Assembly (NCBI GenBank): GCA_965219995.1
Contig: CBDCOX010000002.1
Coordinates: 224,001 to 288,000 of the forward strand
DNA from: Candidatus Latescibacterota bacterium
GTDB taxonomy: Bacteria; Latescibacterota; UBA2968; GCA-2709665
DNA: 64,000 nt
Direction: 5' to 3'
Notes under the pieces: generated by a model
The model's input: only the letters and a program-made list of their open reading frames with translations
What the model was told of the DNA's origin: nothing
Database searches by the model: none
Made by a program: the position numbers and the translations under genes
Shown: piece by piece, positions 20,836-26,832 of the stretch
How the letters are laid out: every line of letters begins with the position of its first letter
How positions within the stretch are numbered: position 1 is the stretch's first letter

Positions 20836-22293
20836 ATGGTACGAAGAACGGAACGCGCGCCGACCTCCCGCGTGCGCTTTGGCTTTGCGCGGGTGGATAT
20901 AACGCCCCCGGTGGGGATCTACCATCGGATGTGGGGTGCGGCCCGGCACGACAGGTCGACGGGGGTTCATAGCCCCATTCTGGCCGACGTGCTGGCGTTC
21001 GGGTCGGTGGACGCGACGGGGGAAATCGCGCTGGTTCGGGCGCATCTGGACCTGGTCGGCCTGGTCGCCCAACAGTATGCGGCGCTCGTGAAGGCTCTCT
21101 GCGACGCCGCTGGGGTAGGGCCGGATCGCGCGGACGTGACGTTCTCGCACACCCATGCCTCGGGATGGTACGCACCGGATCGATTCGGCATGCCGGGTGG
21201 CGAACTGATACAACCGTTTCTGAAGGATGTCGGAGAGAAGCTCGCACGGGCCTGTACGAACGCGGTGGCGGGGATGCGGGAGGTGCTGATCACCTACGCG
21301 GACGGGCACTGCAGTATGGCGGCAGACCGGGATTACCGGGACGACGTGTTCGGCGGATACGTGTGCGGGTACAATCCGGAAGGAGACGGCGACGACACAT
21401 TGCTGGTGGGCAGGATCTGCGACGAGGAGGGGACGCCGGTGACAACGGTGGTGAATTACGGATGCCACCCGACGACGCTCGCCTGGGAAAATTCCCTGAT
21501 CAGCCCGGATTACGTGGGTGCGATGCGGGAGGAAGTCGAGAGGGTGACCGGTGCGCCGTGCACGTTCGCGCTGGCGCCCTGTGGAGACCTGGGACCGAAA
21601 CAGGGGTTTGTCGGAGACCTCGCGGCGGCCGAGAAGAACGGCCGGCAGCTCGGTTTTGCGGCGCTGTCCGTCCTGATGTCGATGGGCCCGCCGGGTATGG
21701 ACTTCGAATACCGGGGGCCCGTGATCTCGGGCGCCACGCTGGGCACGTGGGCGCATTCGGCATTCGGTCGGGAGCGTTTGCGGGCGGCTTCTCTCGTCAC
21801 CGGCGGCGTCTGGTCCGTGGACCTGCCGATGGTGGAGCGGCCCGACCGGGAAACGCTCCGGGAAGACGTGGCGCGGTGGACCGAGGCCCAGCGGGCCGCT
21901 GACGAGGACGGGGATGACCTGAAAGCCCGGTCCTGCGGCGCCCGGGCCGAACGGGCCCGGCGCTGGCTCGCGCGGGTCGCAAACCTGCCGCCTGGCGAGT
22001 CGTATCCCTATCGATTTTCGGTAACCCGAATGGGAGACGCGATCTGGGTGACCTGCGGCGGGGAACCGTACAGCGATCTTCAGGTCGCGTTGCGCCGGCG
22101 GTTTCCCGGGTTCTCGATTCTGGTTTCCCCGCTGGCGGGCAACGTACAGGTCGCTTACCTGCTGAGGAGAGACGCGTACGGCAAGGGATTGTACCAGGAG
22201 GAGCCGTCGAGTCTCGCGCCGGGCTGCCTCGAAATCCTGACCGAGGCCATCGCGGAACGAATCGAAAAACTCGTTGCTTTGGAAGCTTCTTGA
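20836..22293 (+). CDS. Neutral ceramidase N-terminal-like metallohydrolase, function unknown
   Basis: ARVDITPP, SHTHAS, NYGCHPT, ISPDY, CGDLGP. Confidence 0.65.
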   Translation: MVRRTERAPTSRVRFGFARVDITPPVGIYHRMWGAARHDRSTGVHSPILADVLAFGSVDATGEIALVRAHLDLVGLVAQQYAALVKALCDAAGVGPDRADVTFSHTHASGWYAPDRFGMPGGELIQPFLKDVGEKLARACTNAVAGMREVLITYADGHCSMAADRDYRDDVFGGYVCGYNPEGDGDDTLLVGRICDEEGTPVTTVVNYGCHPTTLAWENSLISPDYVGAMREEVERVTGAPCTFALAPCGDLGPKQGFVGDLAAAEKNGRQLGFAALSVLMSMGPPGMDFEYRGPVISGATLGTWAHSAFGRERLRAASLVTGGVWSVDLPMVERPDRETLREDVARWTEAQRAADEDGDDLKARSCGARAERARRWLARVANLPPGESYPYRFSVTRMGDAIWVTCGGEPYSDLQVALRRRFPGFSILVSPLAGNVQVAYLLRRDAYGKGLYQEEPSSLAPGCLEILTEAIAERIEKLVALEAS

Positions 22294-22307
22294 GTGGAGA
22301 CGTCGAC

Positions 22308-23192
22308 ATGGCGGAATTGAAATACGATGGCGGCGCCGATACGTATCGGTTCGAGACGGAAGCGATGACGGGTGAGATCCGCGCGTCGGGAAACTACCAC
22401 GGGGTGTGGACGCTTACGGACAAAGCCACGGGCAGACAGGTGATCCATCCGGAATATTCGGCACTGAACCTGTTCCGGCTGTTCGCGGTTCACCAGGGCC
22501 TGGACCAGCCGCGCCTTATGGACCGCACGATCGAAGCCGTGGACAAAGCCTTGGAAGTGCATTGGCCCGTTACCGAAACACACCAGGGCGCGCTGACTGC
22601 ACGGTACGAAGTGAACGAGCCCAACGTTGTCGATCTGACGGTGACGGTGAGTTGCGAAGGGACCTACGCGGGATATGAACTCTTCCTTTCCAACTATTTC
22701 CACAAGACACTGCGGCCGCACGTCTATCTCCACGGAAGCCGGTACGGCCGGGCGAGCACGGCGCCGGAGCTTGTCGTTCCCATGGTCAACGACGTCTTTC
22801 GCGGAACCGTCGTCGTATTTCCGCGGGACCCGCACGGAGCCCGGCGATGCGTGGACGGGCGGTGGAACCGTAGTGAGGGTAACTCGCCCACGGTGCAGAT
22901 GTGCCCGGTGCGGTATTATGGGTATCCGTTCTCCTTCCTGACGGACACCGCGAACCGGCTGGGCGTTGTGCTGATGTCCACGGTAGCGGACTGCTATGCC
23001 ATCAGTACGCGTTACCACGTGAACGACGAAGCCGATCGCATGACGGATTACAGCGCGTTCGACTTTTCGCTGTTCGGCGACGACCTGGTGCCCGGCAGCC
23101 GACGCACGGTCCGGATGCGGCTGGTATTGACAGAGCTCGATGAAGACATGTCCCAGCCTCTGGCGCACTATCGGGCGTTTGCAGGGGTTTGA
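22308..23192 (+). CDS. Hypothetical protein, probably beta-rich
   Basis: About 294-aa ORF directly after the previous gene, with GGAG RBS; no motif recognised. Confidence 0.6.
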   Translation: MAELKYDGGADTYRFETEAMTGEIRASGNYHGVWTLTDKATGRQVIHPEYSALNLFRLFAVHQGLDQPRLMDRTIEAVDKALEVHWPVTETHQGALTARYEVNEPNVVDLTVTVSCEGTYAGYELFLSNYFHKTLRPHVYLHGSRYGRASTAPELVVPMVNDVFRGTVVVFPRDPHGARRCVDGRWNRSEGNSPTVQMCPVRYYGYPFSFLTDTANRLGVVLMSTVADCYAISTRYHVNDEADRMTDYSAFDFSLFGDDLVPGSRRTVRMRLVLTELDEDMSQPLAHYRAFAGV

Positions 23193-23327: not shown

Positions 23328-24521
23328 ATGAAATTACTGAAACAGTTGTGGGTTCGGCTCGTGTTGGTGGTCGGGGCTTCCGCGGCCGTGGCGGCCTGCG
23401 GAAAGACGCCACCCACCGTGGACGATGATTTATACGAAGAGTATCCAGGGTTGCCCTACGGGATCATGATCACCCTCGCCGGCACCGGAGATCCGGGCAG
23501 AAGTGCCGCGGGATCGGGTCCTCTTGATACGAACCTGTATTTCCCCCAGGACGTGGCCGTCGGACCCGGCGGCCGAACGTACATTCTGGACTGGAACAAC
23601 AATCGGGTTGTTGTGATCGACAACGGAATCGCCCGGCCGCTCATCGGTAACGGCGAGCCGGGCAAGGCGCTTGCAGGCCCCGCGCTGGAGACGGGGGTCG
23701 ATCACCCGACCCATATTTCTTTCGATCTCCAGGGGCGGCTGGTTCTGTCGGCGTGGCAGAATTCCACGATTCTGAGATACGACGCGACCTCGGGTCGCGT
23801 CGAACCGATTGCCGGGCGTGGAGACCGCGGGTTCGGGGGTGACGGCGGGCCCGCTCTCGAGGCTTCGCTGAACCTGCCGAGTTCCACGGTATTCGACCCG
23901 GCCGGTCGTATGTATATCTCGGACCAGGGCAACCTTCGCATAAGAATGGTGGATCTCAACGGTGTGATCTCCACCGTTGCGGGCACCGGACGGGAGGGGT
24001 TTTCCGGGGACGGCGGTCCGGCAGTCCTGGCCGACCTCTATGCGCCCACGGGAGACGCCGCGCAGCCGGGGGGCCGGATAGCGATGGATGGCCGGGGCAA
24101 CCTCTACATCGCCGATACGTTCAACAACCGCATCCGCATGGTGGACGCCACGGGCAGGATCAGTACGGTGGCCGGCGGCGGCAGCATCGGCCCCACAGCC
24201 GGAACGTATTCCGGAGACAGCGGCCCGGCGACTCAGGCCAGCCTTTCCCGCCCCAGCGACGTGGCCGTCGACGCGGAGGGAAATCTGTATATTGCCGATA
24301 CCGGCAACCACTGTATCCGGAAGGTGGATACGGAGGGGGTCATTACCACGCTTGCCGGGAGGTGCGGCGAGCCGGGTTTCAAGGGCGACAGCGACCATCC
24401 CCGGTGGGGCAAGCTCCGGAGTCCGTTCGGGGTCGCGCTCGATCAGGAAGAGAATCTGTACATCGCCGACACGTTCAACCATCGCATCCGCGTGGTGTAC
24501 AAGCACGTCGCCGAAAGATGA
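23328..24521 (+). CDS. NHL-repeat (teneurin-like) lipoprotein
   Basis: Signal peptide with lipobox VAAC; repeated GFSGDGGPA...L.xP.xVAVD.xGNLYIADT.N.RIR units. Confidence 0.88.
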   Translation: MKLLKQLWVRLVLVVGASAAVAACGKTPPTVDDDLYEEYPGLPYGIMITLAGTGDPGRSAAGSGPLDTNLYFPQDVAVGPGGRTYILDWNNNRVVVIDNGIARPLIGNGEPGKALAGPALETGVDHPTHISFDLQGRLVLSAWQNSTILRYDATSGRVEPIAGRGDRGFGGDGGPALEASLNLPSSTVFDPAGRMYISDQGNLRIRMVDLNGVISTVAGTGREGFSGDGGPAVLADLYAPTGDAAQPGGRIAMDGRGNLYIADTFNNRIRMVDATGRISTVAGGGSIGPTAGTYSGDSGPATQASLSRPSDVAVDAEGNLYIADTGNHCIRKVDTEGVITTLAGRCGEPGFKGDSDHPRWGKLRSPFGVALDQEENLYIADTFNHRIRVVYKHVAER

Positions 24522-24586: not shown

Positions 24587-25087
24587 ATGGGTCGAATGCA
24601 ACGGCTCCGCATCACCGGTATCGTACTGACCGCGGGTCTGTTCATTTTTTCCGGTGATACCGCGGCCGCGGGGGATTTGCCCGACCCACTGCCCCGGGTG
24701 CAGGTCGTCACGCTCGAAGGAGATACGCTGAGTCTGACGGACGTCTGCAATGGGAAGACGTCCTTTGTCTATCTGTGGGCAACCTGGTGCAAGACATGCA
24801 AAAGGGAGTTGAAGCACGTCTACAGGTTGAGGAAGAAATACGGAGACAGGGTGCAGGTGTTCGGGATCGCGTGGAAGAACAGCGCGGAGGAAATACAGAC
24901 CTACTTCGCCGACAAGAAGGAATCGCTGCAAAGCTATATAGATTGGGATGGCCGGGTGTTCGATGCCTTCGAGACCCGATTGACGCCCACGGTTGTCATC
25001 GTAAACGCCCGGGGAGAGGTCCTTTTTTCGGGGTACGGTTCATTTCGAAAATACCGGAAGATTCTGGATAAGTCATTGAAGGGTTAG
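24587..25087 (+). CDS. TlpA/ResA-like thiol-disulfide oxidoreductase
   Basis: N-terminal signal/anchor, LWATWCKTC and cis-Pro motif TPTVVIVN. Confidence 0.85.
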   Translation: MGRMQRLRITGIVLTAGLFIFSGDTAAAGDLPDPLPRVQVVTLEGDTLSLTDVCNGKTSFVYLWATWCKTCKRELKHVYRLRKKYGDRVQVFGIAWKNSAEEIQTYFADKKESLQSYIDWDGRVFDAFETRLTPTVVIVNARGEVLFSGYGSFRKYRKILDKSLKG

Positions 25088-25101
25088 TCGCCGAAGGAGC
25101 C

Positions 25102-26082
25102 ATGACCATGAGACGCACGATACCTGGTTTCACGTTATTTCTGTTTGCGCATCTGGTTCTCGCAATCCAGCCCGTTCAGGCGCAGCCCGGCGTGAGCTGA
25201 CGCCGTCCCGTGCTCCCGGGCGGGAGAATGCTGCAGGGCAGTCTGATCACCAGGGACCTGCTGGTTCTGAGCGTGAATTACGAGTATGAGTACCTGGGCG
25301 ACGCAATGTACGGTACCGGGCCGATCCCCAACATCAACCAGGAAGTGACCAGCATGTCCACGGTATCCGTTTTTGCCAGTTACGGGGTCAAGGACTGGTT
25401 CGGCGCCGCCGTGGTTCTGCCGTTTCGTTCCATAACCAACGACAAAATCCTCCTTCCGGGTCAGTACGACAACCAGTATCAGGGCGGCAAGTACATACGG
25501 CATGCCGCGGGCCTCGGCGACGTCGTTCTGATGTTGAACTTTGCTCCTCCTCTGCCGGAATCATTGCCGGGCCTGCTCTTTTCTGCAGGCGTCAAACTCG
25601 CGAACGGGTCGACCCACGCGGTCGACGAATACGGCGAGCGCTTCGCCGACCTTCTGCAGGTGGGATCCGGAAGCATGGACCCCATTTTCTCCGTCAGTCT
25701 GTCGCGTGCATTCGACAGCCTGTTTTTCAACGGTATGCTGTTCACCCGCATCATTTCCCGCGAGAATGTTTACGGGTACAAATACGGGAACGAGTTTCAG
25801 GGCATCTTTTCGATGGATTATATGCACGGGGACAAGCTTGTTGCGGGTGTCAGCATGAATCACGTCTACACGTCGCGTGATTATTTCCAATATGGAAAGA
25901 TCGCCCGAAAACGCGGCGGGACATGGGTTTATCTCGCACCGAAGCTGGGCATACGGGCAACGGAGAGTCTGAGCCTCGAGGCCCGGCTGCCGCTACCGGT
26001 CTATCAGAAGGTGAACGAAAGCCAGTTGACGTCCGACTACCAGCTCCACGTGGGCGCCACGTATCACTTTTTCGCTCGTTAG
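25102..26082 (+). CDS. Outer-membrane beta-barrel ('transporter', phenol-MetA-deg-like) protein with in-frame UGA; candidate selenoprotein
   Basis: AAGGAG RBS, ATG 25102, signal peptide ending VQA, TGA at 25198-25200 in frame with ORF 25210-26082; GLGD, LQVGSGSMDP and aromatic C-terminus YHFFAR. Confidence 0.7.
25209..25230 (+). promoter_or_regulatory. Putative bacterial SECIS stem-loop
   Basis: CTCCC-GGGC-GGGAG hairpin (25213-25226) with a G-first loop 17 nt after the UGA; can extend by U-A, G-U and C-G pairs past one mismatch. Confidence 0.5.
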
Positions 26083-26097
26083 TGTCCGGAGGCTTCC

Positions 26098-26832
26098 GTG
26101 GCACCCAGAGAAACCGAGAAGATGTGGGCCGCTCTGGCGCCGTTCTACGACGTGATGTATCAGTGGAAGGATTACCGGGCCGAGTCGGAGCAAGTTCATC
26201 GGCTGATCCAGGCAAGGCGCGTGTCATCCGGCCGCTCCCTGCTGGACGTCGCGTGCGGGACCGGAGAACACACCCGGTTCTTGCGGGAACACTATGATGT
26301 TACCGGGCTCGATTTGAACCGGGAAATGTTGAAGGTGGCGCGAAACAAGAACCCGGGTATCCCGTTGCGCTGCGGCGACATGACCTCCTTCGACCTGAAG
26401 CGCCGCTTCGACGCCGTCGTCTGCCTGTTCAGTTCGATCGCCTACGTACGGACGTACCGGAACCTGAGGCGGTCGATCGCATGCTTTGAAAAACACCTGA
26501 AACCGGGCGGCGTCCTTGTGATCGAGCCCTTCTTCACGACCGGGACGTTTCTTCCGGGTTCGATCCACGGCGGCACCATGGAAGGAGAGGGCGTCAGAAT
26601 CTCCAGGCACAGCGTGAGCAGACGCCGCGGAAACCTGGCCGTTCTCGATTTCCATTTTCTCCTGTCCACAAAAAAGGGCGTACGATATTTCCACGACACC
26701 CACGAACTGGCCCTCTTCGACCCGTCGCGGTTCCTTGAAATCCTTTCGGACGCCGGGCTCCGCGCCCGGTATTGCGAGGATGGATTGACGCCGGGTCGAG
26801 GGCTGTACGTGTCGTTGAAAGCACTCCCGTAA
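26098..26832 (+). CDS. Class I SAM-dependent methyltransferase (TylM1/DesVI-like)
   Basis: LLDVACGTGEH, GLDLN, GDM, FDAVVCLFSSIAY, HLKPGG, GRGLYV; GGAGG RBS. Confidence 0.88.
   Translation: MAPRETEKMWAALAPFYDVMYQWKDYRAESEQVHRLIQARRVSSGRSLLDVACGTGEHTRFLREHYDVTGLDLNREMLKVARNKNPGIPLRCGDMTSFDLKRRFDAVVCLFSSIAYVRTYRNLRRSIACFEKHLKPGGVLVIEPFFTTGTFLPGSIHGGTMEGEGVRISRHSVSRRRGNLAVLDFHFLLSTKKGVRYFHDTHELALFDPSRFLEILSDAGLRARYCEDGLTPGRGLYVSLKALP

Follow-up and report, generated by a model that had tools for sequence, protein, structure and literature searches.

A candidate selenocysteine-containing outer-membrane beta-barrel family with a conserved in-frame UGA and SECIS-like hairpin in Candidatus Latescibacterota

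A gene for an outer-membrane beta-barrel protein is found at positions 25102-26082 of a 64,000-nucleotide stretch of Candidatus Latescibacterota bacterium (assembly GCA_965219995.1, contig CBDCOX010000002.1, positions 224,001 to 288,000), hereafter the window, and is interrupted by an in-frame TGA. Comparison of this gene with its homologues indicates that the UGA at 25198-25200 is almost certainly read as selenocysteine (Sec). The gene very probably encodes one exported protein composed of a signal peptide, an N-terminal arm with the UGA-encoded Sec at mature residue 6, and a barrel of the COG4313/FapF type, and the hairpin that follows the TGA would be its selenocysteine insertion sequence (SECIS). 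In the proposed decoding, the hairpin at 25213-25226 acts as a bacterial SECIS element that would recruit SelB with Sec-tRNA(Sec), and the ribosome would insert Sec at the UGA 25198-25200 instead of terminating. In the following, G000 denotes the genome of the window, P numbers denote database proteins and L numbers denote loci, including those on metagenome contigs.

Results and Discussion

Gene structure and start site

The reading frame beginning at ATG 25102-25104 contains a single TGA (25198-25200) and is otherwise open to the TAG at 26080-26082. The features recognized in this gene are as follows.

25094..25099, + strand: Shine-Dalgarno-like AAGGAG, spaced 8 nucleotides (nt) from ATG 25108 and 2 nt from ATG 25102
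25108..25182, + strand: signal peptide, with ATG 25108 as the likely start and the in-frame ATG 25102 as alternative; predicted cleavage after VQA
25183..26082, + strand: mature outer-membrane beta-barrel protein of 299 residues, plus the TAG stop, from AlphaFold2 and Foldseek
25198..25200, + strand: in-frame TGA, predicted Sec at mature residue 6, from its conservation in genomes and metagenome loci
25213..25226, + strand: SECIS-like hairpin with the stem CTCCC 25213-25217 / GGGAG 25222-25226 and the tetraloop GGGC 25218-25221

The read-through product from 25102 has 326 residues, counting the TGA, and runs from MTMRRTIPGFTLFLFAHLVLAIQPVQA across the predicted cleavage site into QPGVS-TGA-RRPVLPGG, with the n-h-c layout of the signal peptide judged by eye from the translation. 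A preliminary description of the gene had reported a 326-residue product without Cys, a TGA near mature residue 6, and an ORF track that begins only at GTG 25210. Our reading and translation give the same length, no Cys at all and the TGA at residue 6, and GTG 25210 is likewise the start in the list of open reading frames (ORFs) made with translation table 11. The start proposed there stands in part. AAGGAG and the upstream in-frame ATG 25102 are present, but ATG 25108 is the likelier start, because it lies 8 nt behind AAGGAG where ATG 25102 lies only 2 nt behind it, and because the matching Met is kept among orthologues. The choice affects neither the predicted mature protein nor the position of the TGA.

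If the UGA were a real stop, the locus would consist of a 31-codon leader ORF and a separate barrel ORF from GTG 25210 or ATG 25228, or it would be a pseudogene. Exactly such a split is seen in the table-11 ORF list, and the public gene calls agree with it: 42 of 45 database homologues (P0002-P0045) are called as proteins of 181-289 residues from a Met, Val or Leu just past the TGA, without a signal peptide. But an outer-membrane barrel needs a signal peptide to reach the outer membrane, and a barrel called in this way could not get there. The upstream piece, moreover, is always signal-peptide-like and always in the frame of the TGA and the barrel, though its sequence drifts widely among the copies and its length shifts by whole codons (28-30 codons). 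Nor would a pseudogene retain a single TGA at the same site in two paralogues, several genera and dozens of marine lineages whose proteins are 29-95% identical. We consider termination at this codon extremely unlikely.

Conservation of the TGA

A six-frame search over 61 related genomes was performed, and 33 of the 38 matches listed contain exactly one TGA, at 33 places in 17 genomes. They include an orthologue (83-100% identity) and a paralogue of about 52% identity in G000 and all 14 other genomes of its genus, as well as copies in G021 and G018, both genomes of a second genus. The remaining five matches are one C-terminal fragment and four distant sequences (24-29% identity) without stops. 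All 33 copies, once excised, have the motif AQ[PG]GVS-TGA-RRPVLPGG. The second Sec barrel copy of the genome itself (locus L040, G000:C2:802232-803185, - strand, about 52% identical) is situated outside the window and carries the identical GVS-TGA-RRPVLPGG motif together with the hairpin. When 168 genomes of the phylum were searched, 19 had a match at E <= 1e-10, with G068 and G092 as new ones. G068, from another family of the phylum (29% identity), reads AWAVA-TGA-RRPTLPGE, and G092 (25% identity) is stop-free with QTCSCAAAPVL at the corresponding N-terminus.

Metagenome contigs were scanned with the family alignment, and the N-termini of the 80 loci obtained fall into five classes.

TGA at the position: 61/80 loci
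Pro at the position (EIG-P-RRMTLP): 7/80 loci
contig end before the site: 5/80 loci
unreadable upstream: 1/80 loci
distant, other N-termini: 6/80 loci

The 61 TGA loci are made up of 52 recognized by pattern, six by eye, L139, and the pair L143/L144. A total of 105 TGA loci represent 72 distinct sequences, and no drift to TGG, TGC or CGA is seen among them. The URRP context around the TGA is invariant and sets two Arg residues beside the Sec. The family of Sec barrels would be common in sponge and ocean bacteria.

These counts also bear on the idea that the TGA is a sequencing or assembly error in one genome, for which no supporting point was found. The TGA is present in 10 named independent metagenome-assembled genome (MAG) records of Candidatus Latescibacterota, with two labelled Gemmatimonadota and one 'uncultured bacterium', in addition to the 33 places of 17 genomes and the 61 metagenome loci. 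The window stretch is also found on sponge and marine metagenome contigs produced in other studies. One DNA contig from a separate study, X6 record 16, spans 25124-25799 with one other letter in 676 and none at 25198-25200 among the differences listed, 91 further differences being outside that list. The probability of an error in one genome is practically nil. An error or a recent nonsense mutation is excluded by these comparisons, because the TGA recurs across genomes, metagenome loci, MAG records and independent contigs. The preliminary description had named as contrary outcomes a sequencing error and homologues with Trp, Arg or Gly at this codon. What we found is the same stretch in independent assemblies and in contigs of independent studies, and homologues that keep the TGA and the hairpin.

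Hairpin behind the TGA

The CTCCC-GGGC-GGGAG hairpin of the preliminary description, with a G-first loop 17 nt past the UGA, was confirmed base for base, and its predicted stem energy is -8.3 kcal/mol. The LPGG[RS] peptide fixes four of the five stem pairs; the free one is the middle pair, in which the third position of the Leu codon faces that of the second Gly codon. This pair is C-G in 43, U-A in 18, U-G in five, A-U in four and G-C in two of the 72 distinct sequences and unpaired in none, and in the 32 genome sequences it is C-G (25), U-A (6) or U-G (1). Counting all five core pairs over the 72 sequences, pairing holds in 354 of 360 cells. The covariation score and the count of double changes were reached by none of 500 shuffles, and every slid register scored lower. 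We further found that the Leu codon is always CTN and that the residue after GG is mostly encoded by AGN, even where Arg is replaced by Ser. In G068, where Gly is replaced by Glu, the stem is displaced by one base yet kept.

The bacterial SECIS (bSECIS) model, as given in a 2026 review of prokaryotic selenoproteins, has a loop of 3-9 nt with a G among the first two nucleotides, a stem of 4-16 base pairs (bp), a spacing of 16-37 nt from the UGA and a minimum free energy <= -7.5 kcal/mol (PMC13188914). The hairpin of the barrel gene lies within all of these constraints with its 4-nt loop starting GG, its 5-bp stem, its spacing of 17 nt and its energy of -8.3 kcal/mol. In the selD gene of the same genome, a stem of 7 bp closes a GGUC tetraloop that occupies nt 21-24 counted from the U of the UGA, which is the position of GGGC in the barrel gene. 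Rfam gave no match at 25000-25400. A rigid scan of the genome (TGA, stem of at least 5 bp, GG tetraloop at +20) was too strict to list other selenoprotein genes; of its hits with open frames to either side, the two barrels and selD alone looked protein-like by eye.

Selenocysteine machinery and genetic code

The genome possesses selA (473.8 bits), selB (366.8 bits) and tRNA-Sec (73.4 bits), clustered at C2:1802582-1805869 of G000, and selD at C2:2652925-2653848, apart from the selA/selB cluster. All of them score above curated cut-offs, and selA, selB, selC and selD, which the preliminary description had proposed to look for, are thus all present. The selD gene is itself a selenoprotein gene with its TGA at the known Sec site (CG-TGA-AAK). 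TGA is the commonest terminator of the genome; it is an ordinary stop rather than a sense codon, because it ends 819 of the 1479 stop-to-stop frames of at least 500 codons. Strong SelA matches were also obtained in G012, G021 and G068. In G092, which is 75% complete and has the Cys form of the barrel, no SelA was found.

Cysteine in distant relatives and phylogenetic analysis

With a profile built from 12 full-length sequences, 5276 of 1.84 billion representatives matched at E <= 0.001, 2201 at 1e-10 and 181 at 1e-30. A Cys pair stands directly behind the signal peptide in 113 of the best 150 representatives. By a crude test, 21 of the 150 have no signal peptide, and some of the 13 motif-free rows also seem truncated. 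In a few of the 150, the RRP motif occurs with Glu, Pro or Trp at the site. The Cys motifs are distributed as follows.

CC: 59 of the best 150
CxC: 26 of the best 150
CGxxxC: 24 of the best 150
other CC: 3 of the best 150
CxxxxC: 1 of the best 150

The Sec column of G068 is Cys in 85 of 128 rows of one alignment (A4), and in another (A3) P0046 has Cys in the Sec column of the window. Distant homologues therefore have Cys at the corresponding mature N-terminus, as the preliminary description had suggested checking. The Cys forms are distant from the Sec forms (about 20-28% identity) and usually bear a Cys pair, and the closest non-Sec forms have Ser or Pro. In a more distant branch, L143:94-147 reads Q-C-P-A-TGA-SNPNLPGRR, a CxxU form, and L144:2155-2208 reads Q-TGA-A-A-TGA-SNPNLPGRR, a double-Sec UxxU form; both have a 7-bp stem in identical register. 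As read from the two contigs, this pair is a direct Cys/Sec exchange.

Other N-termini were seen in very distant relatives. L145-L148 have His/Met-rich N-termini of the type DHAPIGVMGDHxHKxGEWM, and L149 has the N-terminus CCAHCGGNMP with a redoxin gene downstream.

A maximum-likelihood tree was constructed from the barrel part only (59 rows) and rooted at the midpoint. It splits into one half with the Cys-motif forms and another with all the Sec forms. A core Sec clade of 22 rows has support of 100/99, and two forms with Ser at the site are nested within it. Because of this nesting, the two Ser forms look like secondary losses of Sec. No direction is claimed for the change between Cys and Sec, since the root is a midpoint root only.

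Barrel fold and family

The mature protein resembles a 12-stranded barrel, and its AlphaFold2 model has a mean predicted local distance difference test (pLDDT) of 93.7 and a predicted template modelling score (pTM) of 0.89. Within the N-terminal arm, pLDDT drops to about 70 over the first 20 residues, and residues 13-19 form a short helix. The best Foldseek match is FapF (5o65; E 4.2e-12, template modelling (TM) score 0.70, identity 13-14%), and 4rl8, the COG4313 channel Pput2725 of Pseudomonas putida F1, also matches (E 1.3e-11, TM 0.71/0.78, identity 10%). FapF is a 12-stranded barrel with an N-terminal plug. In 4rl8, an N-terminal segment reportedly occludes the barrel lumen, according to the 2015 structure paper; its N-terminus presumably lacks both Sec and a Cys pair. 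COG4313 channels have been linked to taking up hydrophobic molecules and are not known for redox or metal chemistry.

PF13557 (Phenol_MetA_deg) is precomputed on eight close homologues and is narrowly over the cut-off in five of 10 distant relatives. A profile search of PDB sequences with alignment A2, which includes one wrong-frame row (L057:1457-2452), found none. Judging from the model and the profile scores, the window barrel is a divergent relative of the COG4313/PF13557 channels rather than a member by the Pfam criterion; it is filed in this way because the window protein itself has no Pfam match and its relatives pass marginally.

Gene neighbourhood

The barrel gene is the third of four closely spaced genes on the same strand; the other three are listed below.

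23328..24521, + strand: NHL-repeat beta-propeller with a lipoprotein-like signal (…AVAAC/GKTPP), from Pfam NHL (5.1e-28) and the lipobox as read
24587..25087, + strand: exported TlpA-like redoxin with WCKTC, from Pfam Redoxin (9.3e-13) and AhpC-TSA (4.8e-12)
26098..26832, + strand: S-adenosylmethionine-dependent methyltransferase, from Pfam Methyltransf_25 (1.2e-17)

The redoxin gene ends 14 nt before ATG 25102 and the methyltransferase gene starts 15 nt past the barrel stop. In the orthologues of both genera, the barrel is likewise preceded by the NHL propeller and, directly upstream, by the redoxin. The methyltransferase is kept in the genus at 75-95% identity, and its link to the barrel is weak because it was not found within the G021 flank examined. 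RNA-library contigs cover parts of the operon, which is no proof of transcription; one of them (X19 record 4, 25000-25230, 19 other letters) bridges the end of the redoxin gene to the hairpin. Contigs from two RNA-library runs of one study have 42 extra letters between the barrel stop and the methyltransferase gene (26082-26084), which probably reflects strain variation in the intergenic spacer. Upstream of the operon, the two long ORFs at 20836-22293 (485 residues) and 22290-23192 (300 residues) match no Pfam family.

Redoxins recur near other copies of the barrel. A redoxin gene is directly upstream in eight Sec-type metagenome loci and downstream of the Cys-type L149, and L111 has a weak match on the opposite strand. 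With the NHL, redoxin and methyltransferase proteins of the window as tblastn queries, no counterpart was found beside the paralogues. In the paralogue and six marine loci inspected, an ORF of 350-410 residues abuts or overlaps the barrel end, and a weak lactonase/NHL-like propeller score was obtained for this ORF in the paralogue and in five marine loci scanned. Most marine copies have such a downstream propeller, distinct from the NHL protein of the window, in place of the redoxin. At L040, the beta-propeller gene overlaps the barrel end, and a phosphodiesterase gene and a multihaem cytochrome gene are on the other strand. Multihaem cytochrome genes are situated near the G068 copy as well as near the paralogue.

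Two Cys-type barrels have annotated contexts. On the Ralstonia solanacearum megaplasmid the order is copper-uptake-associated protein, TonB-dependent receptor, DUF2946, barrel and redoxin, and the mature barrel begins with CATCGC. A plasmid of Candidatus Manganitrophus carries a barrel with SCGSANC in the company of nikR, genes for a cation transporter and a TlpA-family reductase, and HupE/UreJ. According to one paper on the DUF2946 neighbour family, DUF2946 is CruR, a copper-sensing upstream ORF heading copper-acquisition operons, and these operons include AhpC_TSA genes (PMC9426467). A further Cys-type barrel, L057 (G092:C284), is adjoined by a DUF3179 gene (Pfam 7.4e-92), and DUF3179 is listed as a selenoprotein family (UxxC/T) in a table of the 2026 review (PMC13188914).

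Proposed function

The redox or metal-binding N-terminal arm suggested in the preliminary description is compatible with these findings. As a tentative proposal, to which we give somewhat less than an even chance, the Sec, like the Cys pair of the relatives, would be a reduced soft-metal ligand on the N-terminal arm. The Sec would be placed on the N-terminal segment, which lies inside the barrel lumen in the solved relatives; the periplasmic TlpA-like redoxin encoded next to the barrel would act as its reductant, and the beta-propeller partner may work with the barrel. Copper seems the most plausible soft metal for the arm.

With Sec granted, the arm may alternatively serve as a redox gate or carry sulfur or selenium species (persulfide/perselenide) instead of binding a metal. 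The invariant U-R-R-P, which puts two cationic residues beside the selenolate, is in keeping with such a role, as are the classical CxxU redox motif of L143, the multihaem cytochrome genes near the paralogue and the G068 copy, and a thiol-disulfide oxidoreductase as the most conserved neighbour. But no sulfur- or selenium-metabolism gene was found next to the copies examined, both annotated Cys-type contexts are metal-related, and the more distant relatives L145-L148 have His/Met-rich N-termini. We regard a redox gate or carrier as rather unlikely, at perhaps one chance in a few.

A bolder version of the soft-metal ligand, which we consider a long shot, is that the arm acts as a mobile selenolate/dithiolate "fishing line" through the small plugged barrel. 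At the cell surface the arm would capture Cu(I) or another soft metal, which it would pass on to the periplasm; a dedicated TlpA-like reductase would reset the arm, and the propeller would assist. If true, metal would be taken up across the outer membrane independently of TonB in a family counting over 5000 protein clusters, and selenium would provide the high-affinity version in ocean and sponge bacteria.

Evidence weighed against selenocysteine insertion

Several observations do not favour the interpretation given here. With one Sec and no Cys, the mature protein lacks the usual UxxC/CxxU redox pair. The folding energy of an 81-nt stretch is ordinary (z = 0.21; 101 of 200 shuffles fold as well), and a 33-nt context of the window sequence favours an alternative fold (-11.4 vs -8.3 kcal/mol), which is not conserved in the marine sequences. 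The case for the hairpin is accordingly built on conservation and covariation and not on energy. In G018, a fragmented genome of 80% completeness, SelA-like matches are weak only. The window protein matches no Pfam family at E <= 1 and so falls outside PF13557. For the proposed function, the copper reading is based on gene neighbourhoods in two distant lineages and on one neighbour-family paper (PMC9426467), and no recognisable copper gene is found in the neighbourhood of the window's own barrel.

The residue at the site also varies. Ser is found in the database proteins P0012 and P0023, nested in the Sec clade, and Pro in a sister clade (seven loci); P0095 has Glu, and P0076 has neither Cys nor Sec. 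P0138, a fragment of 172 residues, prints Trp at the Sec position (GVSWRRPILPGG), which would be either a real TGG or a gene call under a table with TGA as Trp. Because Ser, Pro, Glu or a printed Trp stands at the site in these few close relatives, the chalcogen appears dispensable in some lineages.

The same observations could be taken to suggest that the UGA is read through without Sec, by a near-cognate tRNA (Trp, Cys or Arg) at low efficiency, stimulated by the hairpin and throttling the synthesis of the barrel. P0138 has Trp exactly at the site, Ser, Pro and Glu are tolerated there in several relatives, and the mature protein lacks a Cys partner. But the Trp of P0138 may stem from a gene call with TGA as Trp, and the genome has the full Sec machinery and a selD hairpin with its loop at the identical distance. 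Cys occupies the site in distant relatives, L143 and L144 swap Cys for TGA, and the 72 distinct sequences all retain the TGA, none having drifted to TGG, TGC or CGA. Read-through of this kind is very unlikely, and Sec insertion remains our reading of the codon.

Novelty and significance

Table 1 of the 2026 review of prokaryotic selenoproteins has 119 families and subfamilies, and its outer-membrane barrels are the MtrB/PioB-type GSU2204 and a TonB-dependent receptor of the FCYXU type (PMC13188914). A selenoprotein of the PF13557/COG4313 type is absent from the full Table 1 of that review. In NCBIfam release 20 the window protein has no match at E <= 1, with NF041027, NF049945, NF041374 and NF045500 among the listed selenoprotein models, and 10 relatives have none either. 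The remark in the preliminary description that this channel family was not known for selenoproteins thus agrees with Table 1 of the review (PMC13188914) and with NCBIfam. We found no description of this Sec barrel family in the literature searched, and supplementary lists of screening studies may hold it. The barrel would therefore be a selenoprotein family beyond the newest inventory, as far as its 119 families represent it (PMC13188914).

Sec on an outer-membrane channel is unusual, as Sec is found mostly in soluble thioredoxin-fold enzymes. Because gene callers start after the TGA, public protein sets lack both the signal peptide and the key residue, and members of the family are systematically mis-annotated as proteins of 181-289 residues. 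The analysis also brings to light a large family, as yet uncharacterised, of 5276 representative clusters at E <= 0.001 with a Cys pair or Sec at the mature start, whose members are often found beside a periplasmic thiol reductase. This offers a testable lead on how soft metals or redox equivalents cross the outer membrane or are sensed there.

Comparison with known systems

The window protein shares its barrel fold with the COG4313 channel 4rl8 and differs from it by the Sec arm, at 10% identity. The fold is also shared with FapF, the secretion channel for amyloid subunits in Pseudomonas, but the neighbours of the window barrel that were scanned include no fap-type gene. They are the NHL propeller, the redoxin and the methyltransferase, and elsewhere propellers, cytochromes and FG-GAP proteins, which does not correspond to a fap operon.

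TlpA of Bradyrhizobium serves the copper-site client proteins ScoI and CoxB. In the window, likewise, a periplasmic TlpA-like CxxC reductase is encoded beside a protein with an exposed Cys or Sec that would need reduction. Unlike the Bradyrhizobium clients, the presumed client here is the arm of an outer-membrane barrel and not an assembly factor of cytochrome oxidase.

The nearest likeness among selenoproteins is to the GSU2204 family (MtrB/PioB-type, NF041027) and the FCYXU TonB-dependent receptor (NF049945), which are also predicted Sec-containing outer-membrane beta-barrels in Table 1 of the review (PMC13188914). The window barrel differs from both in family and size, and its predicted Sec is placed on the mature N-terminus without a partner Cys. 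Decoding itself is canonical; the novelty lies in the protein family and in where the Sec is placed.

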